A stretch of DNA of 64,000 bases from an uncultured Chloroflexia bacterium. GTDB lineage: Bacteria; Chloroflexota; Anaerolineae; B4-G1; SLSP01. Of the stretch, positions 3,695-16,719 are shown one piece after another. Every line of letters starts with the position of its first letter. The first letter of the stretch is position 1. Under the pieces are notes generated by a model. The model was not told where the DNA came from. It saw nothing but the letters and a program-made list of their open reading frames with translations, and made no database searches. Location of the stretch: positions 1 to 64,000 of the forward strand of contig CAVVUS010000038.1 of NCBI GenBank assembly GCA_963751345.1, in the 5' to 3' direction. A program made the translations under genes and the position numbers.

Positions 3695-6600
3695 ATGGCA
3701 AGCCTGTTGGTAGACACCATTACATCGAGCGATCCCTCTATCCGCAACCGTCCGCTGGATGAGCTGTGCAGTGGGCTGAGCCTCCAGCAACTCCTGGCAG
3801 AGTGCGCTGCCCTGGAGGAGTTTCGGCACCGGAGTGGCAACCTATACGAGCGCGTGCGTGCGCTCTTCTTTCTCTATGCTGTCCATCGTTTCCACGTGCC
3901 GGGGGCGAGCGGGGGTGCATTCCCGTGGACTGATTCCCTACCATGGCTACGAGCATCTCCTGGAACGGCGGTTCGAAGAGGCGATCAACGTATTTCTCGA
4001 AGCTCAGGCACGGGGCGTGGTCAGCGAGGCAACATCCAGTGCATTGGCCGAGGCCTATCACCGTCTGGGGTTTCAAACGTTGGCCGATCAGGTACGGCGC
4101 AGCGTCAGGTCCGTCCGCGGAAATCAGTGGATGTTCAGAGTGGGGCACCCGTCAGACCAGCCGCTTCGCATCCGGCAGGAGATGCTGACGCGGACACCGG
4201 GTGGGCTCTATCCTGTTCTTCACGAGGCCACGCCCGTGAGGATGGATCTGAGCCACAGTGGGTGGAGTGACATCTTCTTCCTGGGGATGGACTACCCGGA
4301 GGGGGCGAGGGTGCTCAACGTCTCCATCGATCTGGCCGTCCGAGGGCGGGATTCGCGTCCCCAGCCGCCGGTGGAGGCCTTCGTGCGAGTGATCGATGCC
4401 CCGGTGCTCCGTTTCACGAGCGTGGATCTGGGTGCCACCGCCGAAGTCCGCGATCTGGCAGAGGTCTTCGACTACGCACGCGACTACCTGGGGCTGCTCA
4501 AGGGAGCCGTGATCGCGGCCGGCATCGTGCCGCCGGGCATGGAGGGGTCGGGCGAGCAGCTGTCCGACCTGTTATCCCGGTTGGTCGGGCCCGGACTCGG
4601 GCTCGAGGTCGTGAGCAAGGTCAACGGTATACCGAAGGGCTCGCGCCTGGCAGTCTCCACCAGTCTGCTGGCGTGTCTGATTGCGGCGTGCATGCGGGCG
4701 ACGGGGCAGACCACGTCGCTCGTGGGTGTTCTGCAGGAGACCGAGCGGCGCCTGGTGGCCGCCCGCGCGATCTTAGGGGAATGGTTGGCCGGGTCCGGCG
4801 GCGGCTGGCAGGACAGCGGCGGGGTATGGCCCGGGATCAAGCTGATCACGGGCGAGCTGTCGGGGCCAGGCGACCCCGAATATGGCGTGAGCCGCGGGCG
4901 CCTTCTGCCCGGTCACCAGATCCTCGGTCCCGACCAGGTCGGCCCGGAGGCCCGGCGCCGGCTCCAGGACAGCCTGGTCCTCGTCCACGGCGGCATGGCC
5001 CAGGACGTCGGACCGATCCTGGAGATGGTGACGGAGAAGTACCTGCTTCGATCGGAGCCCGAATGGTCGGGTCGCGCGGAGGCGATGGTCATCTTCGATG
5101 AGATCCTCTCACTGCTTCGCGGCGGGGACGTGAAGGACATTGGACGTGCAACGACCCGCAACTTCTTCGGTCCTATCGAGACCATTATCCCGTGGGCCAA
5201 CAACCTCTACACGGTGTCGCTGATCGATCGCGTCCGCGCGTCATTTGGCGACGATTTCTGGGGATTCTGGATGCTCGGCGGGATGTCCGGCGGTGGGATG
5301 GGCTTTATCTTCGACCCGTCGCGGAAGGCCGAGGCCCAGACGGAGCTGCTGGCGACGATGCTGGCGACCAAACAGGAGCTCTCAAACGCGCTTCCATTTG
5401 CGATGGACCCCGTCGTCTACGATTTCTCGATCAACCAGAGGGGCACGTACGCCGAGCTTCTGGACGAGGATGTAGGGCCGATTTCGACCACAGAGGACGA
5501 CGCGGCTATGATGCCGCCCGGTTACTACACCTTGGTCGTTCCCGAACTGCTGCGCCGCAGTCGCCACGAGCTGTCGCCCGTAAGGCGAGCCGAGCTCGAC
5601 GCGTTCGGCGTGATGTGCCGCTCTGCACCGCAACTCTCGGGCATGGTTCAGACGCTCTTTGACCAGTTGATGCCTCGCTCGGATCGCGAATCGGCAGGTG
5701 CTCAGACGCTGGACAGCCTGCTGTCGGAGTTAGGATTCGATCGCATTCAGCACGAGCAGATCCGCTCGGATCTCCGGAGTGGACGTATTGGCCTTGCGCA
5801 GAACCGCCTGTCCCTCACGACTGAGATCCGTGATGTGGAGGATGGCGATGTGCTATCGCTTGATACGTCACCGGCACAGAACCCGGGCTCAGCTCGGTCG
5901 GCGGAGTTCGTGGGGCTGGGAATGGAAGCCTTGCGCGAGGGTCGCGTCGCGGTAGTCTCGCTGGCTGCCGGTGTTGGAAGCCGCTGGACGCATGGCGCGG
6001 GGGTGGTCAAGGCACTTCATCCGTTCTGCAAGCTCGACGGCGTGCATCGCTCTTTCATCGAGGTCCATCTGGCCAAGAGTCGCCGCGTGAGCCGGATCGC
6101 GGGCACACCGATCCCCCACGTGATCACGACGAGTTATCTCACGCACGAACCGATTCGGAGCTATTTGCACGAGCGCGGAAACTACGGCTACGAGGGCCCC
6201 TTGGCCCTGTCGCTGGGCCGGACCGTGGGGCTGCGGCTGATCCCGATGGCGCGAGACCTGCGTTTTGCCTGGGAAGAGATGCCCCAGCAGCTCCTTGACG
6301 AGCAGGCCCAGAAGGTCCTCGAGAGTCTCCACACGGCCCTGATCGGGTGGGCGCAGCAGATGGGAGAGAGCGTGGACTACCGGGACAACGTGCCGATGCA
6401 GTGCCTGCATCCGGTGGGACACTGGTTCGAGATTCCGAATCTGTTGAAGAACGGCATCTTGGCGCGGATGCTGGAGGAACGGCCGCAGCTCCAGGTGCTG
6501 ATGATGCACAACATCGACACCGTTGGCGCCGACGTCTCCCCCCTGATGCTCGGAGCGCATCTGGCGTCGGGAGCTACGATGACCGTGGAGGTCATCACGC

Positions 6601-7070
6601 GGCGTGTCGAGGACCGGGGCGGTGGGCTGGCGCGGGTCGACGGATCGCTTCGGCTCGTCGAGGGGATGGCGCTGCCCCGTGAGGAGGATGAATTCGCGCT
6701 TTCCTACTACAACTCGAACACGATGTGGATCGATATCGACAGGCTTCTCGACATCTTCGGGCTCACGAGGCCCGAGTTACAGGATGCACGGAAGGTGGCC
6801 GACGCCATCCGCGTGCTGGCGACGCGCATGCCCACCTACGTCACACTTAAGGACGTCAAGAAGCGGTGGGGCCACGGGCAGGAAGATATCTATCCGGTTG
6901 CCCAGTTCGAGAAGCTCTGGGGAGACATGACGGGCCTTCCCGAGATGGACTGCCGCTACGTCTCCGTGCCTCGTGTTCGCGGCCAGCAGTTGAAGGAGCA
7001 GGCACAACTCGACGGCTGGCTCCGCGATGGCTCGGCGGACTACGTCGCGTCGCTCTGCGAGTGGGAGTAA
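3695..7070 (+). CDS. GHMP sugar kinase fused to a UDPGP-type UDP-sugar pyrophosphorylase, about 1120 aa, frameshift near 3905
   Basis: N-terminus from ORF 3695 joins ORF 3834..7070 near a G run. Kinase motifs PVRMDL..GWSD, IPKGSRLAVS, GGGWQD, GGMSGGG. Pyrophosphorylase motifs LAAGVGSRW..K, PVGH, NIDT, QFEK, QLK. Confidence 0.75.
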
Positions 7071-7090
7071 CCGCAGCGCGAGGTTGGCCA

Positions 7091-7119
7091 TTCCGGGCGG
7101 ATCACAGATCCGCCCGGAA
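7091..7119. terminator. Probable bidirectional terminator hairpin
   Basis: TTCCGGGCGGATC-ACA-GATCCGCCCGGAA, perfect 13-bp stem between convergent genes. Confidence 0.6.
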
Positions 7120-7161
7120 CCGAAGACCGGCGACGAGCCTATCCGTGGGTGCGAGCAGGCG

Positions 7162-7548
7162 TCAGGTGTCCCTACGGATCAGTCCTCGTGCGAGATAGAC
7201 CTCGGCAGCCTCAGCCACCAGGTCCGCCGTGAGCGGCGCGTCCAGGTCGTTGCGGAGGCGCTCGGAGAGGCTCACGAGCTCCCCATAGGAGGTCCTCCCC
7301 GGTCTCAGGCTGGCGTAGATATCGAGGACTTCCTGGTTGGACACGCCCGTCAATTCAGCCGCACGGCGAAAGTTGAGGCCGACCTCGGTGTAGCCGGCCG
7401 CCTCTGCCGCTGCGGCCTGCAGGCGAAGGGTCTCCGCACTGATGCGGAAGTCCTCGGCCGTCAGGCGCTGTTCCAAGATGGCCTCCATTGTCAGCTCATC
7501 CAGTCTGCGACCACTCTGCGTGCGCAGATCCTCCGGCGCATCGGGCAT
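7162..7548 (-). CDS. pduE: B12-dependent diol/glycerol dehydratase small (gamma) subunit
   Basis: T.SGRRLDELT, EDFRISAETLRLQA, NFRRAAELT, LRPGR, EAAEVY..RG. Confidence 0.9.
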   Translation of the reverse strand: MPDAPEDLRTQSGRRLDELTMEAILEQRLTAEDFRISAETLRLQAAAAEAAGYTEVGLNFRRAAELTGVSNQEVLDIYASLRPGRTSYGELVSLSERLRNDLDAPLTADLVAEAAEVYLARGLIRRDT

Positions 7549-7557
7549 AGTGTCCTC

Positions 7558-9234
7558 CTACTCGTCGGTCCGGTTCTTGATCACGGCGCCGCGACTTGCC
7601 GACGCTGCCAGTTGAGCATAGAGCGCCAGATAGCCCCGCTTGATCTTCGGCTCCGGCCGGTGCCAGCGCCCGAGCCGAGCCGAGATTTCCGCGTCGGACA
7701 CGTCGAGATGCAGGCCACGGTTGGGCACGTCGATCGTGATCGTGTCACCGTCCTCCACAATGGCGAGCGGCCCCCCTTCGGCGGCCTCGGGCGAGACGTG
7801 GCCGACAAAGCAGCCGTTGTTGGTGCCCGAAAAGCGGCCGTCGGTGACCACAGCCGTGGTCAGTGCCAGGCCGCGACCATAGAGCAGCTTCATCGCCGTG
7901 TACATCTCGCGCATGCCGGGGCCGCCCTTGGGACCCTCGTAGCGAATGACGACGACCTCCCCCGGCCGGACTTCGCCCGCGAGGATCGCATCGTTCGCCT
8001 GCTCCTCGGAATCGAAGCAGCGTGCGCGTCCTGTGAAGGTGTGCATGTCCGGATGAATTGCCGCGGGCTTGGTGATCCCGGTGTCCGGCGCGAGATTGCC
8101 CTTCAAGACGGCGATGCCACCGCCGGCGCTCCAAGGATCCGTCCGGGGCCGGATGACCTCGCCGTCGGGATCGGCGGCGCCGGCGACGTTCTCCGCCATC
8201 GTCTTCCCGTTCACGGTGAGCACATCTCCGTTCAACAGGGGCAGCAACTGCTTCATCACCGCAGGCACGCCCCCCGCACTGTGGAAATCGGGGACATTCG
8301 GCGCGGCTGCGGGAAAGATCCTGGCGATGTGAGGGGTGGAGCGACAGAGCTCCTCAAAGCGATCCATCGTGATCTCACACTCCGCCTCGTAGGCGATGGC
8401 CGGGAAGTGTAGGGCCACATTGGTCGAGCCCCCGATCGCGGTGCTGAGCCGAATGGCGTTCTCAATGGCTGCCGGCGTGAGGATATCGCGCGCCGTGATG
8501 CCCTGTTTCACCAAATCGACGATCTGCCTGCCAGCCGCCTGGGCCGATCGGAGGCGCGCGGCGTGGGTGGCCGGTATGGTGCTGCTGCCCGGCAAGCACA
8601 TACCCAGTGCCTCCGCAACGGCACACATTGTGTTGGCCGTGCCGAGGAACGCGCAGGAGCCGCAGGTTGGCGTGGCGCAGTCCTCTAGTTTGAGGTAGGT
8701 CTCCTCATCGATCTTGCCGCTGGCGAGCATCCCGAGTCCCTCGGTCAACGACGTCGTGTCAGCGGCGCGTTCGTCAAACTCGCAGCCGCCTTCCATCGGC
8801 CCGCCGACCACGATGATGGCCGGCACGTCGAGACGCGCGGCGGCCATCAGCATGCCCGGCACGATCTTGTCGCAGGAGCAGAGCAGCACCACAGCGTCTA
8901 GCCTGTGCGCCTGGATCATCATCTCCACGTCATTGGCGATGAGGTCCCGGCTGGGGAGGATGTAGTGCATGCCGGCATGCCCTTGGGCGATGCCATCGCA
9001 CGGTGCCATCACCCCGAACTCGACCGGCGTCCCGCCAGCCTGGCTGATGCCTTGTTTGACGTAGTCCGACACAAGGTCGAGGTTGTAGTGGCCGGGCACG
9101 ACCCGGTTCCACGAGTTGGCCACGCCGATCATAGGCCTTTCGAGGTCGTAATCGCTATAGCCCATGGATTTCCAGAGGGCACGGTGCATCGACCACTCGG
9201 GCCGTTTGAGGATGTCCTTGCTGCGCCAGGTCAT
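7558..9234 (-). CDS. ilvD: IlvD/Edd-family dihydroxy-acid dehydratase
   Basis: VPGH, PCDG, CDKIVPG, CGSC..GTANTM, GGSTN, YEGPKGGPGMREM, TDGRFSG, GHVSPEAA. 558 aa. Confidence 0.9.
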   Translation of the reverse strand: MTWRSKDILKRPEWSMHRALWKSMGYSDYDLERPMIGVANSWNRVVPGHYNLDLVSDYVKQGISQAGGTPVEFGVMAPCDGIAQGHAGMHYILPSRDLIANDVEMMIQAHRLDAVVLLCSCDKIVPGMLMAAARLDVPAIIVVGGPMEGGCEFDERAADTTSLTEGLGMLASGKIDEETYLKLEDCATPTCGSCAFLGTANTMCAVAEALGMCLPGSSTIPATHAARLRSAQAAGRQIVDLVKQGITARDILTPAAIENAIRLSTAIGGSTNVALHFPAIAYEAECEITMDRFEELCRSTPHIARIFPAAAPNVPDFHSAGGVPAVMKQLLPLLNGDVLTVNGKTMAENVAGAADPDGEVIRPRTDPWSAGGGIAVLKGNLAPDTGITKPAAIHPDMHTFTGRARCFDSEEQANDAILAGEVRPGEVVVIRYEGPKGGPGMREMYTAMKLLYGRGLALTTAVVTDGRFSGTNNGCFVGHVSPEAAEGGPLAIVEDGDTITIDVPNRGLHLDVSDAEISARLGRWHRPEPKIKRGYLALYAQLAASASRGAVIKNRTDE

Positions 9235-9251
9235 GGGTTTCTCCTATATGT

Positions 9252-11492
9252 TCAGGGTTTCAGGACGATGAGTTCGCCGGGAGCGCGGTCAGGCTCGACC
9301 ATTTCCGTCTCGCGGCGATGTAGTAGCGTGGTCTGCACGATCAGGCGCAGGCGCGCTGTATTGTCGATACGCACGGCCACCGGGGACGTCGGCTTGTGTT
9401 GGGCATAGCGCGCCGCGTTCCGGCCGATCTGCCGGTAGGTCTCGAGGTCGAGGTTGGGCGACATCGAGAAGAGCTCCAGATTCTCCAATGGGGCGAGATC
9501 GCGCTGGTGGATGACGGTCGTCCCCTTGGACTGGATCCCGATGGCTACGCCGGAGCCGCTGAGTTGCGCTCCCGCGTGCCCGATGAATGCACAATCTGAG
9601 GTGTGGTGGATCCTGACGATGCGTGCCGGCAGGCCCTCGTCGGCGATGCCCTGGGTGAGGGCCGCGAGGACATCGCGCAGGTCGAGGCCGCTCAGGGCCT
9701 CCTGAATGCCATTCCCGAAAGCGGGGCCGACAGCGACGACGACCTCGGGTGAGGTGCGGGCCTCCGCAGGTCCCGTCTCGCGAAGCCACAGATCGTGGGC
9801 CTCGCGATCGAGATCTCGAAGGAACTGCTGAGGGTCCCAAGCCTGTGGCAGGGCTTGGAGCTGCTCCCAACGCCGCCCCTCGACCTTATATCCGGTTCCG
9901 GGGCCTGTGTAGTCGTTGCGGTCCGTCAGCGCGCTCAGGACGTGGAGGGATCCGTCGTCGTCCACCCCGAAGATGCCCGACGTGTGCAGGTAATCCCCGA
10001 TGACGCGCTGCCGCTGCATTTCGAGCAGATTCGCGGCGATCTCCTCATACCCGGCCTGCGCAAGCGTGCGAATCACCTCGACAATCGTGATCGGGCCGTC
10101 CAGCAGCATTTGGGCAGCCTTGATGTCAGCGATCCGGTCTCGATCCGGCATATCCTGGCTACTGAAGGCGGTGACCGCTGCGTCCACCTCGGCATCGCTG
10201 ATCTCGGCGAAGTCGAAGGCATCGAAGACCGCTTGGATGGCGCGCGCCCCCCGTTCTCGAACGTGGAGCACATCCTCCTCCTGGATCGGGTGGATGCCGC
10301 CGTCGACGCGCATATCCCGCTGGATCACGTACCAGTCGTCGAGCTCGGTGGTGTCGAAGTTTCCCCCTCCGAACATATTATCGTAGCGGGGAATCGACCC
10401 GTAGCCCGAGGTGACGAAGTCGGTGCCAGGGATGAACTGCAGCATGAGCTTGGCGCTCTTGCGCATTTCGGAGTGCGAGGCTAACGCGTCGTTGCCCGCC
10501 GCGACCTCGAGCCCGAGCATCATCGCGATCAGGTTCTCGGCGAGTACGACGCGCACGCCGCCGGGCAGCGATTCGGGCAGCGCGATGCAACTGATCGACC
10601 CATTCTGGGTCCCTTGGCTACCCGCGCCGCGGGTCACCAGAAGACAGCGCGCCTCCAGGTAGAGCATCGACTTGCCCTCAGAGTGGCCCATCAACGCCTC
10701 CGAGCCGGTGCCGGAGGTGAAACGCGTCTTGACGCCGCGGCTGGCGTAGGCTGCCGCGAGGAAGGCCTTCGACCAGGGCGTGTCGTCGCCATCGACGAAA
10801 GCCCCTTCAGTGCCATAGACTGAGAGCGTCTCCGAGTACGTCGTCAGCCCGCGGAAGCCCAGCCGGAGGTTGGTCGCCTCCTCGACCGAACACTGGGTCA
10901 GCACGCCGCCTCCGCCGATCTGGGACCCCACCAGGATCGCCAGTGCGTTCAGGGGCGCATAGCGGCTGACGCCCACCGTCGTCTCGACCTCGTTGAAACC
11001 GCGCAGCGCAGCTTCCGCCGCATCCGCCGCCAGCAGGGCGGGGTGCTCCTTTCGATTGGTCACGTGGGCCTGGTTCGCCGGCGTCCGCCGTGCCCGCATC
11101 TTCGCCAGCCCCATCATCATCTCCAGGACATTCATCTGCTGGACGATCTCGACGAGTTTGGCGGGGGTGCAACCGCGAGTGAGGGCGAGCACCTCCTCGC
11201 GGGTCACGTTGATGTCGACCATCATACGCGCGATATCGCGCGATGGCGTCGCCATCGCGGCTTCCACCGTGGCCGGATCCAGGCTGTGGGAGGCAATGAA
11301 ACGATCGATGAGGTCGAAGTCCGCCTGACCGACCCCGTCGATCTCGACGATGACGCCATCTGCGGTGCGGACGCTGGGGGTCGGATCGTGCGGGCTGTCG
11401 ACGGCGATCAGCCCGACATCGGCCCAAGGCCGGATGAACGTCTCGCGGTTGATCGGACGCTCCTGCCGTATCTCAAAGCGCTTCGATGTCAT
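9252..11492 (-). CDS. pduC: B12-dependent diol dehydratase, large (alpha) and medium (beta) subunits fused, 746 aa
   Basis: Start MTSKRF after SD AAGGAG. Alpha motifs NQAHVTN, EVETT, ETLSVYGT, DGDDTPWSK, QNGSISC, PGTDF. In-frame beta motifs VGPAFG, GIADEG, SGSGVAIGIQSKGTTVIHQRDL.PLENLELF, IGRNAARYA. Confidence 0.92.
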   Translation of the reverse strand: MTSKRFEIRQERPINRETFIRPWADVGLIAVDSPHDPTPSVRTADGVIVEIDGVGQADFDLIDRFIASHSLDPATVEAAMATPSRDIARMMVDINVTREEVLALTRGCTPAKLVEIVQQMNVLEMMMGLAKMRARRTPANQAHVTNRKEHPALLAADAAEAALRGFNEVETTVGVSRYAPLNALAILVGSQIGGGGVLTQCSVEEATNLRLGFRGLTTYSETLSVYGTEGAFVDGDDTPWSKAFLAAAYASRGVKTRFTSGTGSEALMGHSEGKSMLYLEARCLLVTRGAGSQGTQNGSISCIALPESLPGGVRVVLAENLIAMMLGLEVAAGNDALASHSEMRKSAKLMLQFIPGTDFVTSGYGSIPRYDNMFGGGNFDTTELDDWYVIQRDMRVDGGIHPIQEEDVLHVRERGARAIQAVFDAFDFAEISDAEVDAAVTAFSSQDMPDRDRIADIKAAQMLLDGPITIVEVIRTLAQAGYEEIAANLLEMQRQRVIGDYLHTSGIFGVDDDGSLHVLSALTDRNDYTGPGTGYKVEGRRWEQLQALPQAWDPQQFLRDLDREAHDLWLRETGPAEARTSPEVVVAVGPAFGNGIQEALSGLDLRDVLAALTQGIADEGLPARIVRIHHTSDCAFIGHAGAQLSGSGVAIGIQSKGTTVIHQRDLAPLENLELFSMSPNLDLETYRQIGRNAARYAQHKPTSPVAVRIDNTARLRLIVQTTLLHRRETEMVEPDRAPGELIVLKP

Positions 11493-11693
11493 AGCATTTG
11501 CTCTCCTTCGTGGTACGGCGGTAGTATACTCGAAGGGCGGGGAACCGGAAACCGGTGCCAGGCGGCTACACGAGGGTCTCTCTCTCGGCGTCGCTATGCG
11601 GAGTTGGTGCACGGTGGTATAGTTGGATCGGAGGCCGACGGAGGTCGAGCCGCCGTCATTTCCATGCACAACCTAACGAAGGAGTGAAGGTAC

Positions 11694-12422
11694 ATGAGTT
11701 CGATTAAGGTCACCGTATGGAACGAGTACCGCCACGAGAGGGCAGATCAGAACGTTAGAGAGGTATACCCGGACGGCATCCATGAGGCAATCGCGGCGTA
11801 TCTGCGCACCCAAGGCTACGACGTCAAAACTGCGACGCTGGACGAGCCGGAGCATGGGCTGACCGAGGCTGTCCTTGCCGATACCGATGTCCTGTTCTGG
11901 TGGGGGCACATGGCGCACGGAGAGGTGAAGGACGAGATCGTGGACCGCGTGTACGCTCGGATCATGGAGGGCATGGGCTTGATCGTTCTCCACTCGGCGC
12001 ATTTCTCCAAGATCTTCAGAAAGCTCATGGGCTCGACCTGCGACCTGAAGTGGCGAGAGATCGGCGAGAAGGAACGCGTCTACGTGATCGAACCCGGCCA
12101 TCCCATCGCCGCGGGTCTGGGGGAGTACTTCGAGGTCCCGCATTCCGAGATGTACGGCGAGCGCTTCGATATTCCCGCACCGGACACGCTGGTCTTCATC
12201 AGTTGGTTCGCGGGTGGGAATGTCTTCCGCAGCGGATGCTGCTATCACCGGGGTGCCGGGAAGATCTTCTACTTCCGCCCAGGCCACGAGTCGTTTCCCG
12301 TCTTCTACCAGCCTGAGGTCCGCAAGGTGCTCACGAACGCGATTCAGTGGGCGGCGCCCGTCGCCGGTCCGACCGTGACATACGGGCACCGTCCTCAGCC
12401 CCTCGAGCGCGTCGAGCCCTAG
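11694..12422 (+). CDS. thuA: ThuA-family trehalose/glycoside utilization protein
   Basis: [46 protein letters not shown]. Confidence 0.9.
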
Positions 12423-12471
12423 CATAGCTAACGCCGTATTCACCCTTATGTGAGAGGAGAGAAGTCGACCT

Positions 12472-13224
12472 ATGGTGCCACCTATTGCATTGCAGTTGTA
12501 CTCGGTCAGGGAGTATGCGCAGGAGAGCTTTGAGGACGCCGTCCGGAGGGTCGCCGCGATGGGTTACGCGGGCGTTGAGCCGGCGGGGTTCCCAGGGACG
12601 ACGGCGGCGGCCGCCGGCGCATTGTTCAAGGAGCTCGGCCTTCAGGTGAGTAGCGCCCACACGGCACTCCCCATCGGTGACCAGGAGGCCGACGTGCTGA
12701 GGACCATGGAAGCCATCGGCGGGACGCGGATCATCTCGGGGATCGGGCCGGATGGGTACACGTCGATTGACCAGATCAAGAGGACGTGCGACACCTTCAA
12801 TCGGGCCGCGGCCGTTGCCCGGGCCAACGGCATGACCTTCGGCATGCACAATCATTGGTGGGAATACACACCTGTGGAGGGCAAGTACCCGTATAAGGTG
12901 ATGCTCGACCTGCTCGACCCGGATGTCTTCTTCGAGATCGACACCTACTGGGTGCAGACGGCGGGGGTTGATGTCGTGGAAGTGGTCAAGGAGCTCGGAA
13001 CACGCGCGCCGCTGCTGCACATCAAGGACGGCCCGTGCGTGCAGACGGAGCCAATGACGGCTGTGGGGGACGGTGTGATGGACTTCCCTGCCATCTTGGA
13101 GGCCGCGGGAACTACGCCAGAGTGGCTGATCGTCGAGCTGGACCGCTGTGCCACCGATATGATGGATGCCGTGCAGCGTAGTGTGACCTACTTGGTCGAG
13201 AGCGGCTTGGGCAAGGGCCGCTAG
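12472..13224 (+). CDS. Sugar phosphate isomerase/epimerase (AP_endonuc_2 TIM barrel)
   Basis: LQLYSVR, GYAGVE, HNH.WE, EIDTYW, HIKD, IVELD. Confidence 0.85.
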   Translation: MVPPIALQLYSVREYAQESFEDAVRRVAAMGYAGVEPAGFPGTTAAAAGALFKELGLQVSSAHTALPIGDQEADVLRTMEAIGGTRIISGIGPDGYTSIDQIKRTCDTFNRAAAVARANGMTFGMHNHWWEYTPVEGKYPYKVMLDLLDPDVFFEIDTYWVQTAGVDVVEVVKELGTRAPLLHIKDGPCVQTEPMTAVGDGVMDFPAILEAAGTTPEWLIVELDRCATDMMDAVQRSVTYLVESGLGKGR

Positions 13225-13236
13225 GTCCGATACCAG

Positions 13237-13307
13237 AACCTTGCGAAGGTGGCCCGAGTCCCCGGCACCCGGTCGCCGGGACCTCGGGCTTGAACCTTCG
13301 CAAGGTT
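13237..13307. repeat. REP-like dyad, copy 1 (AACCTTGCGAAGGT ... AACCTTCGCAAGGTT)
   Basis: Inverted pair of imperfect palindromes around a further GC stem, between convergent genes. Confidence 0.65.
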
Positions 13308-13316
13308 GACCTATGC

Positions 13317-14510
13317 TTAGTAGCTGACGTCGACGTGGCGCTTAGTGCGCGCCGATTCGATGATGGCAGCCGACACACAGTCGGCCCGGTAGCCGTCCTC
13401 GAAAGTGGCTCCGTAGGGGCCCACCTCTTTGTTGTTTGCGACGCAGTCCAAGAAGTGGTTTAGCTCGTGGATAAACCCGTGCTCCCATCCGATCATATGT
13501 CCCTGCGGCCACCAGTTGGACCACCACGGATGGAATGGCTCGCTCACCAGGACGGTCGAGAAGCCTTGGGCTTCCTTGGGTTCCTGATCGATGAAGTACA
13601 CCTTCAGCTCATTCAGGCGTTCGAGGTCGAACTCGATCGAGCCCTTCTCCCCGTTGATCTCTATGATCTCGTGGTTTTTCCGCCCTGCGGCGAAGCGTGT
13701 CGCCTCCAGGGTCCCGATCGCGCCGTTGGCAAAACCCACTGATGCCACAAAGGCATCGTCGATCTCGACGGTGCCTGTTGACCCGTCCGGGTTGGGGCGG
13801 TGCTCGGTGAAGATCCTCGTCATTGCCGCGACGCTCTCGATGTCACCCACGAGGAAGCGTCCCAGATCGATGAGGTGCGTTCCAAGATCGCCCAACGCGC
13901 CACAGCCTGCCACATCCTTCTCCAGCCGCCACGTCATCGGCGTGTTGTAGTGCGGCAGCACCCACTCCTGGAGATAGGTGGCGCGGTAGTGGTAGATTCT
14001 ACCGAGCTTTCCTTGCTCGATCAACTCGCGAGCTAGCCGAATGGCGGGCAGGAAGCGGTAGTTGAACCCGACCATATGCTTGACGCCGGCTTTGGTCGCG
14101 GCGTCGAGCATCGCCTTGCTTTCCTCGGGTGAACGGCCGAGGGGCTTCTCGCAGAAGACGTGCTTGCCCGCCTCGACCGCCGCAATCGTGGGAGCGTAGT
14201 GGACGCTGTTGGGCGCGCCGTTATCGAGGATCTGTACCTCGTCGTCGGCCAGCATATCATCCCAGTTCGTGTAGTACTTCCTGTAGCCATAGCGTCGTGA
14301 GGCCTCTGCCACCGCCTCCTCATCGCGGCCACAGATGGCAACGAGATCGGGCACGACCACCGGCGGGTACATCATGTAAGGAATGGTCTTGTACGCGTTG
14401 CTGTGGGCCTTCCCCATGAAGGCATAACCAAGCATCCCTACCCCGACGTGCGGTGCCTCTCCCTCGGCTCTAGCTCCTGCCATCGTGGTGAAACCACCGG
14501 CTTCCGACAT
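13317..14510 (-). CDS. Gfo/Idh/MocA oxidoreductase (levoglucosan/glycoside 3-dehydrogenase-like)
   Basis: GYAFMGKAHS, CEKPL, FNYR, YLQEW..WR...AG.GALGD.GTH, EATRFA.GR.N. Confidence 0.85.
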   Translation of the reverse strand: MSEAGGFTTMAGARAEGEAPHVGVGMLGYAFMGKAHSNAYKTIPYMMYPPVVVPDLVAICGRDEEAVAEASRRYGYRKYYTNWDDMLADDEVQILDNGAPNSVHYAPTIAAVEAGKHVFCEKPLGRSPEESKAMLDAATKAGVKHMVGFNYRFLPAIRLARELIEQGKLGRIYHYRATYLQEWVLPHYNTPMTWRLEKDVAGCGALGDLGTHLIDLGRFLVGDIESVAAMTRIFTEHRPNPDGSTGTVEIDDAFVASVGFANGAIGTLEATRFAAGRKNHEIIEINGEKGSIEFDLERLNELKVYFIDQEPKEAQGFSTVLVSEPFHPWWSNWWPQGHMIGWEHGFIHELNHFLDCVANNKEVGPYGATFEDGYRADCVSAAIIESARTKRHVDVSY

Positions 14511-14545
14511 CTCATCCTCCTGGCGTGTTCGATAGGGGTAGGATC

Positions 14546-15546
14546 TCAGTTGCTGCTGAACGCGGCGTCAAAGGCTACATCTGAAGGGCGGAAGTCCTCA
14601 CGGCGTACCATCGCCAGCGCCTCAGGCGCACCGAACTCGCGGTCCATACCGCTGTCCTCCCACTCGATCGAGAGCGGCCCCTGATATCCGGCACGGTTGA
14701 GCGCTCGGATGATCGGGTCCCAGCGAACGTCGCCGTGTCCCGGCGAGACGAAGTCCCAGCCGCGGCGCGGATCACCGAAGTCGAGGTGCGAGGACAGGAT
14801 GCTGTTCCTGCCGGTGAGCTGTACCCGCGAATCTTTGACGTGCACGTGGAAGATACGCTCGGCAAAGGCGTCGATGAACTCCACCGGATTGATGAACTGG
14901 TGGATCAGGTGGCTCGGGTCGAAGTTGAAGCCGAAGTTCGGGTGCCCGCCGACGGCGTCCAGCGCTCGCTGTGCCGTGATGAGGTCGTAGGCGATCTCGG
15001 TCGGGTGTACCTCGAGGGCGAACTTGATTCCCTCTTCCTTGTACACATCAAGAATCGGCAGCCAGCGATCTGCGAAGTCCTGGTAGCCTGCCTGCACGTA
15101 AGCCTGTGTGGTAGGTGGGAAGAAGTAGAAGGCACCCCACACGGAGCTGCCTGTGAAGCCGTTGACGGTATCGACGCCAAAGAGCTTCGCCGCCCGTGCC
15201 GTGTTCTTGCATCTCCTCCGCAGCGCGCTTCCGTACGCCCTCTGGATCGCCATCGCCCCAGATTCGCGCGGGGAGTATGTCCTTGTGGCGCTCGTCAATC
15301 CGGTCGCAGACGCACTGGCCCACAAGGTGGTTGCTGATTGCGTACCACTTGAGGCCGTGCTTGCTGAGAATGTCCTGCCGCCCCCGGATGTAGGCATCAT
15401 CCTCCAGGGCCTTAGTCAACGTCGAAGTGACTCCCCCAGCAGGCCAGCTCCAGCCCGTCGAATCCCCAGGCACTGACCTTTTCGGCCAGTACCTCCAGGG
15501 GTAGATCAGCCCATTGTCCGGTGAATAGCGTGACAGGTCGTGCCAT
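14546..15546 (-). CDS. Sugar phosphate isomerase/epimerase (TIM barrel), frameshifts near 15415 and 15210
   Basis: Reconstructed [16 protein letters not shown]...ELACWG.HFDV...ISNHL.GQ...GFTGSS...EVHPTEIA...NFDPSH...HVHVKD...SIEWED. Confidence 0.85.
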
Positions 15547-15738
15547 AGCCGACTCTCCTTTCTGTTGAGACTCCTGGGTATGGATGATGGGTGCATTGTG
15601 GTTGAGCGCCCACCGGATGCCCAGAGTGTACCGGGAATGGTCGGGGCACGCAAGTGGAGGGCGTCTGGGCGTTGGACTGCGGGCGAGACTGTCCTGAGCG
15701 CTGCGCTCAGGGCAGGCTGTCCGCGGTCCATAGCGTTG

Positions 15739-16719
15739 CTATGCGTGTGACAGCGCGTGCCGCCAGGTGAGCAGATCACGGACCGTCTCCACAAAGGGAC
15801 GCGACCGGTATCCCAGCTCTCGCCGCGCCTTCGCTGAGCTGAATCGCGCGTTCTCCGAGATCGTCCTCAGGGAATAGGGCGTGAACTGTGGCGTGGTCTT
15901 GGTGAGCCGGTAGACGTGCTGCATCACCCTGGCCAATGCCATCGCCATGCGCCACGGCAGCATAAGGTGGGGGGAGCGGACGCCCGCTGCCGCCTGCATC
16001 GTGCTCATGGCCTCGGTCAGGGTCGCGTAGTGTCCCGATAGGATGTAGATCTCGCCGCGACGCCCCTTCTCCCCGGCAAGAATCAGCCCTTCCACGATGT
16101 CCCGCACATCCACGAAGTCGTAGGCGCCGGGAACCAGAAGGTGCAGCTTCTGCTTGGCAAAGTCCAGCAGGGCCTTGCCCAGCAGCGAGCCGCGGAAGTC
16201 GAAGGGCCCGACGATGGCCGTTGGGCACACGATCACGGCATCCAGCCCCTGCTTGACGGCATCGAGCACGGCGGCCGTGCCCTGCGCTTTGGTCTCGTCA
16301 TAGGTGCCTGCCGCATGGCTCAGGGCCAGAGGTGTGGTCTCATCGACCACGACGTCGCCCGGCATCCGCTGGAACGCGTGAATCGAGCTTACGTGGACGA
16401 AGCGCCTGACACCGGCGCGCAGCGCCGCAGCCGTCACATTGCGCACCCCCTCGACGTTGACCCTCCGCATCATCCCCTCGATGCCGGGCATGATCGAGAT
16501 GATCCCCGCGAGGTGATAGACCGTGTCGACGCCCTCCATCGCGCAGTCCAGGGCCTCGGGGTCGAGTACGCTGCCTTCATACTTCGTGACATTGAGTGCC
16601 TCGAGTGATGCACAGTCATCACCGGGCAAGACCAACGCTCGAACAGACGCTCCCGCGGACAGCAGCCTACGAACAAGCACATTGCCAATATGGCCGGTCG
16701 CACCAGTTACCAGAATCAT
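15739..16719 (-). CDS. NAD-dependent epimerase/dehydratase (dihydroflavonol reductase/3-beta-HSD-like extended SDR)
   Basis: VTGATGHIG, YHLAG, HVSS, YDETK (YxxxK), GAYDFVDVRD. Confidence 0.85.
   Translation of the reverse strand: MILVTGATGHIGNVLVRRLLSAGASVRALVLPGDDCASLEALNVTKYEGSVLDPEALDCAMEGVDTVYHLAGIISIMPGIEGMMRRVNVEGVRNVTAAALRAGVRRFVHVSSIHAFQRMPGDVVVDETTPLALSHAAGTYDETKAQGTAAVLDAVKQGLDAVIVCPTAIVGPFDFRGSLLGKALLDFAKQKLHLLVPGAYDFVDVRDIVEGLILAGEKGRRGEIYILSGHYATLTEAMSTMQAAAGVRSPHLMLPWRMAMALARVMQHVYRLTKTTPQFTPYSLRTISENARFSSAKARRELGYRSRPFVETVRDLLTWRHALSHA

Follow-up and report, generated by a model that had tools for sequence, protein, structure and literature searches.

An IlvD-family gene inside a B12 diol dehydratase operon of an uncultured Chloroflexia bacterium: a candidate two-dehydratase pathway

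Coenzyme-B12 diol dehydratases are textbook radical enzymes, believed to depend on a reactivating chaperone and in most cases on a microcompartment. The stretch of DNA analysed here, 64,000 nucleotides from an uncultured Chloroflexia bacterium (contig CAVVUS010000038.1; the window in what follows), carries on its minus strand an operon of three genes for such an enzyme in which neither accompaniment is found, and in which a gene of the IlvD/EDD family, named IlvD2 here, stands between the gene of the fused alpha-beta subunit and that of the gamma subunit. The locus raises the question of what a dehydratase of dihydroxy acids is doing inside a diol dehydratase operon. The answer that we favour, with moderate confidence, is a co-transcribed catabolic module of two dehydratases acting on a sugar acid or a polyol. 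A functional two-dehydratase pathway is the best reading because the linkage recurs, a separate ilvD exists in the same genome, pduGH genes are lacking and IlvD2 resembles the sugar-acid enzymes of its family.

The three-gene operon and the persistence of its order

The features of the locus, in the direction of transcription and followed by the upstream region, are these.

11492..9252, minus strand: fused alpha-beta (PduC-PduD type) B12 diol/glycerol dehydratase subunit, 746 amino acids, assigned from Pfam and NCBIfam
9251-9235, minus strand: intergenic gap of 17 nt, holding the GGAG that is the ribosome-binding site of the IlvD2 gene
9234..7558, minus strand: IlvD/EDD-family paralogue IlvD2, 558 amino acids, probably a sugar-acid (aldonate) dehydratase as judged from Pfam, motif, tree and context
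7557-7549, minus strand: intergenic gap of 9 nt, with an AGGAGG that overlaps the IlvD2 stop codon
7548..7162, minus strand: gamma (PduE type) small subunit, 128 amino acids, PF02287 (Dehydratase_SU) 122.5 bits
11493..11693, no strand: divergent intergenic region of 201 nt between the operon and a ThuA-like gene, presumed to be the promoter region

An earlier note on this DNA had described a fused alpha-beta gene, a 17-bp gap, ilvD, a 9-bp gap and a gamma gene, and this description is correct to the base. The fused gene begins with the ATG at 11492, preceded by GGAG 12 nt upstream; a longer GTG frame from 11669 is an unlikely start because the relatives begin at the same M-x-SKR. The fused protein matches PF02286 (Dehydratase_LU) with 873 bits over residues 1-555 and PF02288 (Dehydratase_MU) with 98.5 bits over residues 590-701, and it reaches 860 bits on the NCBIfam large-subunit model, above the cut-off of 788. 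IlvD2 contains the domains ILVD_EDD_N (PF00920, 413 bits) and ILV_EDD_C (PF24877, 239 bits). The AGGAGG lying over the IlvD2 stop suggests translational coupling of IlvD2 to gamma. No terminator-like site was found on the coding (minus) strand within the three-gene unit, no sigma-70-like promoter site was detected in 11493..11693 upstream of it, and no Rfam family, the cobalamin riboswitch included, gave a match in 6900-12500 at E up to 1. The three genes would form one transcription unit, and it is from sequence that we infer their co-transcription. A look for sequencing runs gave five DNA metagenomes, with shares of 0.25 or less, and no RNA run.

The arrangement is not peculiar to this assembly. 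Related loci were taken as the best 80 of about 600 from species-representative genomes, 74 being of the fused type and 6 classical, and an IlvD gene directly follows the fused gene in six of the 74 (L008, L009, L010, L014, L017 and L043). Gamma lies 400-2200 nt away from the fused gene, with an MFS transporter, a glycosidase-like gene, a PIN gene or small open reading frames between them, in another six; five have room for gamma downstream and do not carry it, and five end at a contig edge. Of 145 genomes in the taxonomic order to which the window belongs, 35 carry the fused gene and 35 carry IlvD2 (E up to 1e-180). Within genus g1, that of the window, IlvD2 is located downstream, on the same contig and strand, in 19 of the 19 other genomes that have the fused gene; 17 of these show a gap of 14-103 nt between the two genes, and the other two show gaps of about 660 and 755 nt. 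One of the 19, a long-contig relative (L017, genome G534; G534:C22:398726-402391), contains stops and frame breaks in the fused gene and in IlvD2, with four TGA and one TAA inside the latter, which reflect either decay of the operon or indel-rich long-read error.

Eight genomes of genera g225 and g232 retain the order of fused gene, IlvD2 and gamma on one contig, with inserts of 80-5000 nt between the fused gene and IlvD2 that comprise HepT/MNT and DUF433/DUF5615 toxin-antitoxin pairs, DUF3795, SDR and glycosidase-like genes, among others. In G513, of genus g229, restriction-modification genes stand at the break and the IlvD2-gamma pair is found on another contig. Gamma comes after IlvD2 in every one of these g225, g229 and g232 relatives in which it was found. 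A pattern can be seen in loci L091-L094, L098, L099 and L102: toxin-antitoxin, DUF3795 and restriction-modification inserts occur repeatedly between the fused gene and IlvD2, and none occurs between IlvD2 and gamma save for one TPR gene in L094.

Divergence was estimated with the NG86 method for nine loci against the window; dS was 1.1-2.1, which is saturated, so that the dN/dS ratios of 0.05-0.15 for IlvD2, 0.07-0.11 for the fused gene and 0.08-0.23 for gamma are rough. As the order is kept at dS above 1, it has outlived synonymous saturation, and the ratios indicate that IlvD2 is under purifying selection. A softer kind of support is that 12 pairs of top metagenomic matches, to the fused protein and to IlvD2, agree in the size of their longest contig.

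The embedded IlvD-family enzyme

The host genome (5.40 Mb in 49 contigs, 93.4% complete) encodes four IlvD/EDD family members. A separate housekeeping ilvD (814 bits on TIGR00110) is situated away from the operon, in an ilvC-leuA-leuC-leuD-cimA-leuB-ilvD-ilvE cluster, and is the biosynthetic gene. IlvD2 is 50% identical to its product and 47% identical to a third paralogue, which scores 599 bits. In the alignment with its paralogues IlvD2 keeps Cys-Asp-Gly, Cys-Asp-Lys (SCDKIVPGMLMAA) and Asp-Gly-Arg-Phe-Ser. The residues that follow the catalytic Ser are G-T-N-N-G, as against G-A-T-R-G in the two other short paralogues, and DGRFSGTNNG is present in 119 of 120 close homologues of IlvD2. The second signature of dihydroxy-acid dehydratases, as given in PMC5770437, ends in T-D-[GA]-R-x-S-[GA]-[GAV]-[ST], and the T-D-G-R-F-S-G-T-N of IlvD2 departs from it at the last two positions (Thr, Asn). 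According to the same paper, the Ser is the base in Caulobacter xylonate dehydratase, and in xylonate and arabinonate dehydratases a Thr at +2 is hydrogen-bonded to it; other IlvD/EDD members have Ala or Gly at Ser+2, then Ser or Thr. IlvD2 displays the features of the pentonate dehydratases, namely Cys-Asp-Lys, the catalytic Ser and Thr at Ser+2.

The position of IlvD2 among its relatives agrees with the motif. In a FastTree phylogeny of 119 sequences (150 representatives filtered to 520-720 amino acids, plus paralogues and relatives), the supports of which were not inspected, IlvD2 falls within a S-G-[TS]-N clade, apart from the housekeeping type. The sister cluster P0241 shares the motif at 60% identity and was represented by 80 metagenome loci, mostly from gut and many of them close kin. 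Of the 55 that measure at least 7 kb, 44 carry a transporter of the acid type (GntP, TRAP-DctM or MFS; GntP in 30 and TRAP DctM in 13), 13 a DHDPS-family gene and nine an IclR or GntR regulator, and in none of the 80 was there a match to ilvC, ilvE, leuA-D or cimA. In the window operon itself, IlvD2 is surrounded by diol dehydratase genes only, with no gene for acid uptake or for the processing of a keto-deoxy acid, and the longer IlvD2-like representatives hold no informative extra domain of the Rosetta-stone kind.

The motif, the placement in the tree, the context of the sister clade and the separate housekeeping ilvD make a role of IlvD2 as sugar-acid dehydratase more likely than a biosynthetic one, as far as sequence can tell. 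The annotation as dihydroxy-acid dehydratase is probably wrong for the S-G-T-N-N-G clade.

The fused dehydratase and the missing reactivase

Fused proteins of this type number thousands in metagenomes, and the named ones come mostly from Anaerolineae. Phylum-wide samples of 400 other genomes contained the fused gene in seven and IlvD2 in none, and no further contexts were gained from them. The comparison with the enzymes of Klebsiella oxytoca (PddABC), Salmonella and Citrobacter (PduCDE) and K. pneumoniae (DhaB), with 1dio and 1iwp as structures, shows the same three domains, the fused protein scoring 703-709 bits to the classical alpha chains and 152-155 bits to the beta chains. It also shows that Q141, H143, E170, E221, Q296, D335 and S362 are identical under the same numbering. 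Together with F374, these residues are conserved in the window protein and in all 74 large subunits of an active-site alignment (68 fused, 6 classical). The seven comprise active-site and calcium-binding residues. They are among the residues listed as mutated in a table of the review PMC7674605.

Position 336 is Ala in 68 of 68 fused proteins and Gln in 6 of 6 classical enzymes, and 16 further differences are fixed between the two groups, among them positions 142 (A/C), 223 (L/V), 375 (G/A) and 377 (G/S), which adjoin active-site residues. The predicted pocket is altered by Ala336 in place of Gln336 and by A142, L223, G375 and G377. Mutants of the Q336A type reportedly accept longer 1,2-diols. 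In the K. oxytoca enzyme the Q336A change brought the glycerol kinact down from 1.15 to 0.081 per min, and this was paid for by a fall in propanediol kcat from 304 to 109 per s and a rise in Km from 0.06 to 0.57 mM (data of Yamanishi et al. 2012, as tabulated in PMC7674605). An engineered alpha-beta fusion was likewise inactivated more slowly in lysate, according to the same review. Since both the Q336A change and the engineered fusion slow inactivation, a natural Ala336 fusion that does without a reactivase would be a coherent design. Ala336 is shared with the K. oxytoca Q336A and S301A/Q336A mutants, but here it is natural and invariant across the subfamily.

In the classical enzymes alpha and beta are separate chains; here they form one polypeptide, the N-terminal extensions of beta and gamma are missing, no PduGH/DdrAB reactivase or shell genes are present, and a foreign gene separates the subunit genes. 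The beta part of the fused protein scores 215 bits on the NCBIfam medium-subunit model, below the cut-off of 248, and covers profile positions 38-216 of 219, so that the first ~37 are missing. Gamma scores 126 bits on the NCBIfam small-subunit models, the cut-off of 183 not being reached, over positions 51-173 of 174, and lacks ~45-50 N-terminal profile positions of PduE. N-terminal segments of beta and gamma subunits target the enzyme to the microcompartment, and the short N-termini seen here fit a cytoplasmic, non-encapsulated enzyme, as far as profile coverage can indicate. The two-gene plan, with large plus beta followed by gamma, is the same as in the natural fused glycerol dehydratases of Mesorhizobium loti and Mycobacterium smegmatis (Liu et al. 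2010, as cited in PMC7674605). The full-text literature outside subscription papers yielded no account of a diol dehydratase operon that contains an IlvD gene, and nothing on a natural Ala336 or on the absence of a reactivase in the fused subfamily.

The absence of reactivase and microcompartment genes, which the earlier note had claimed, extends to the genome. The reactivase domain PF08841 has no match above cut-off in the host genome (the best reaches 13 bits) and, at E up to 1e-5, none in any of the order's 145 genomes, which leaves no sign of pduGH elsewhere; as a positive control, the same model gave 527 bits on the PduG reading frame of Citrobacter at locus L084. The shell domain PF00936 has no match in the host genome, and no second large- or medium-subunit domain was found there. 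As this genome is incomplete, the absence of reactivase and shell is probable and not proven. Among the 80 related loci, reactivase genes (clusters c14 and c15) accompany only the six with separate PduC and PduD, from Citrobacter and Clostridia. For cofactor supply the host genome encodes one PduO-type cob(I)alamin adenosyltransferase and one cobalamin riboswitch, a CobA-type transferase not being found in it. The sole PduO-type match (G000:C30:326898-327390) consists of two overlapping pieces in different frames, possibly owing to a frameshift or an assembly error.

One pathway or two, and the surrounding genes

We infer a sugar-acid role for IlvD2, its link with the diol dehydratase in one pathway, and each of the substrates named here. 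The route would begin with IlvD2 as an Fe-S/Mg dehydratase of the IlvD/EDD type, converting a 2,3-dihydroxy (sugar) acid into a 2-keto-3-deoxy acid. The fused alpha-beta chain and gamma would constitute a coenzyme-B12 diol dehydratase working in the cytoplasm, without microcompartment or PduGH-type reactivase, and this enzyme would then dehydrate a vicinal diol further along the same pathway. Two options can be envisaged for that diol. It may be a small one that arises after aldol cleavage and reduction, such as ethylene glycol, 1,2-propanediol or glycerol, in a Dahms-like or 6-deoxyhexose-like scheme. Alternatively, the keto-deoxy acid may itself be the substrate, dehydrated at its terminal diol by the diol dehydratase, a reaction that in the case of a pentonate would yield 2,5-dioxopentanoate.

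The second option can be pushed further, although we regard the outcome as rather improbable. The fused Ala336 enzyme would then be no propanediol or glycerol dehydratase but a B12-radical dehydratase for the terminal diol of the 2-keto-3-deoxy-aldonate made by IlvD2. A pentonate would pass through 2-keto-3-deoxy-pentonate to 2,5-dioxopentanoate (alpha-ketoglutarate semialdehyde), a route in which the Weimberg pathway's second dehydration would depend on cobalamin, and the enzyme would be the founding member of a group of B12 dehydratases for acidic diols.

The surroundings of fused dehydratases in other lineages offer some guidance. In loci labelled Phototrophicaceae and their relatives, an ABC transporter precedes the fused gene and gamma, and two or three enolase-superfamily dehydratases follow (galactonate-, glucarate- and rhamnonate-like, all below cut-offs), together with DHDPS-like and GFO/IDH/MocA genes. 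Neighbours in other lineages include KduD (374 bits, cut-off 339), a KDG-kinase-like PfkB, a KDPG/KDPGal aldolase, a xylulokinase-like FGGY kinase and an SSADH-like aldehyde dehydrogenase. Counted with HMMs of the neighbour clusters over 75 fused and 6 classical loci, of which many are kin, an enolase-type gene occurs in 20 of the 75 fused loci, an enolase-type or IlvD-family gene in 27, and any of six sugar-acid families in 33, as against none of the six classical loci apart from one ilvD. The high background and the kinship of the loci leave this context no more than suggestive. The enolase-superfamily enrichment was at one point considered as strong evidence and was downgraded, the host genome alone carrying 44 genes of the superfamily (MR/MLE) and 42 of GFO/IDH/MocA type, for example on C23, C25, C15 and C20.

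The abundance of MR/MLE, GFO/IDH/MocA and IlvD/EDD genes points in itself to a heavy investment of this bacterium in the oxidation of sugars and sugar acids. The genome also contains a YjhG/YagF-type xylonate dehydratase (1111 bits) with an FAH-family gene and a divergent aldehyde dehydrogenase (G000:C12:61900-64100; L090 5968-10541), a classical Weimberg-like set that is adjoined by an MFS transporter and a DUF2961 gene. The whole genome yielded two aldehyde-dehydrogenase-family genes, of which one belongs to this Weimberg-like cluster, and three Fe-type alcohol dehydrogenases; with only two of the former, a canonical PduP/PduQ follow-up is not evident. Near fused dehydratases of Caldilineaceae and Phototrophicaceae relatives (L068, L072, L075, L033 and L064) lie genes for a CuyA/XcbE-like PLP enzyme (308 bits, cut-off 450) and arylsulfotransferase-like, GDPD and MetE-like genes, which hint that some fused dehydratases may act on sulfonated or phosphorylated diols.

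Several observations count against a module of two cooperating dehydratases. The operon holds no aldolase, reductase or aldehyde dehydrogenase. Gamma follows within 300 nt of the fused gene, with no IlvD, in 52 of the 74 fused loci, and in G420, L012 and L013 a fused gene of 73-75% identity is directly succeeded by gamma. Conversely, three genomes of a sister family (G408, G430 and G431) have an IlvD2 of 75-76% identity and no match to the dehydratase; it lies there in unrelated contexts, beside an O-antigen-ligase-like gene, citrate synthase and aconitase, or ETF, and a housekeeping-type IlvD is also present in at least two of the three. In G485 (L105) the fused gene and gamma enclose fragments of IlvD2 only (residues 51-198 and 459-555), which amounts, to judge from the pieces that are left, to an internal deletion. 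The junction between fused gene and gamma takes up unrelated genes of the toxin-antitoxin, restriction-modification, MFS, glycosidase-like and PIN kinds. The expectation of an enolase-type gene by chance, about 13% per 16 kb, makes the 20 of 75 fused loci a weak enrichment. Finally, IlvD2 passes the dihydroxy-acid dehydratase equivalog TIGR00110 (672.7 bits, cut-off 618.15) and stays below the cut-offs for L-arabinonate dehydratase (444 against 882 bits), YjhG/YagF (262 against 808) and Edd (276 against 708).

From the free-standing IlvD2, the fused loci that lack it and G485 it follows that neither enzyme needs the other and that the junction tolerates insertion. These facts speak for the rival idea that IlvD2 is a neutral hitch-hiker, a free-standing gene that landed at a tolerant junction and borrows the promoter there, the two enzymes serving unrelated pathways. 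Purifying selection is no obstacle to it, for it indicates a working IlvD2 and not a partnership with the dehydratase. We consider this the most serious of the alternatives, though unlikely, given that all 19 genomes of g1 and three sister genera have kept the order although dS exceeds 1, that IlvD2 and gamma are tightly spaced with overlapping ribosome-binding signals, that IlvD2 remains beside gamma where mobile genes have parted it from the fused gene, and that fused dehydratases elsewhere are also found among sugar-acid genes. The two-dehydratase pathway, which the earlier note had put forward, retains in its favour the recurring linkage and the likeness of IlvD2 to a sugar-acid enzyme; that IlvD2 and the dehydratase each occur alone tells against it.

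An improbable alternative would make IlvD2 a second genuine dihydroxy-acid dehydratase, serving the synthesis of branched-chain amino acids or pantothenate and co-expressed with the diol dehydratase for regulatory reasons only. The TIGR00110 score given above would agree with it, as would NF002068 (691.6 bits, cut-off 644). The closest solved structures are dihydroxy-acid dehydratases too (6ovt, 463 bits; 6nte, 425 bits). Compared with the pentonate dehydratases of the Weimberg and Dahms pathways, CcXyDHT of Caulobacter (5oyn) and RlArDHT of Rhizobium (5j84), IlvD2 belongs to the same family and has the same motifs and the Thr at Ser+2, but scores only 259-350 bits to them (350 to the L-arabinonate dehydratase structure) against 463 bits to the dihydroxy-acid dehydratase of M. 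tuberculosis. On the other side stand the higher-scoring ilvD already within the ilv/leu cluster, the motif after the catalytic Ser, which departs from the dihydroxy-acid dehydratase pattern, and the sister clade, with its acid transporters and its 80 loci devoid of ilv/leu genes. IlvD2 might instead serve the dehydratase as an accessory factor, for instance as a stand-in for the reactivase that was not found, and have no metabolic role itself. This would account for its staying beside gamma, but is very improbable, since the fused dehydratases of most lineages lack both reactivase and IlvD2, G485 retains the dehydratase with an IlvD2 remnant only, IlvD2 has preserved the catalytic motifs that a functioning dehydratase needs (Cys-Asp-Lys and Asp-Gly-Arg-x-Ser), and its orthologues occur without the diol dehydratase.

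The most solid new points are the S-G-T-N-N-G clade and, for the subfamily, the fusion, Ala336 and the lack of reactivase and shell. They describe a large and mostly uncultured subfamily of B12 diol dehydratases without reactivase or microcompartment, in which a substitution engineered to slow suicide inactivation, Q336A, occurs naturally, and one lineage in which an aldonate-type dehydratase appears to be wired into the diol dehydratase operon. If both enzymes belong to one route, it would be an undescribed deoxygenation of sugar acids or their fragments and a natural counterpart of the engineered xylonate-to-diol routes, and the subfamily could be a source of inactivation-resistant, single-chain dehydratases for biocatalysis.

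On either side of the operon the window holds genes of a different stamp. At 11694-16719, divergent from it, are a ThuA-like gene, two xylose-isomerase-like TIM-barrel genes, a GFO/IDH/MocA gene, an NAD-epimerase-like gene and a TetR gene. The best likeness of the GFO/IDH/MocA gene is to levoglucosan dehydrogenase (363 bits, cut-off 650), and the set resembles pathways of the 3-keto-glycoside or levoglucosan type. The ThuA-like, GFO and xylose-isomerase-like neighbours are kept in three of the six IlvD-carrying loci (L008, L017 and L043), the other three (L009, L010 and L014) being too short. They were considered as members of the operon and not counted as such, as they are not beside it in genus g225. 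At 3834-7070, on the plus strand and converging on gamma, lies the gene of a 1078-amino-acid protein in which a fucokinase-like GHMP-kinase region (67 bits) is combined with one that resembles UDP-glucose pyrophosphorylase; nucleotidyltransferase and EgtD-like methyltransferase genes come before it, and it is kept in L008 and L043.

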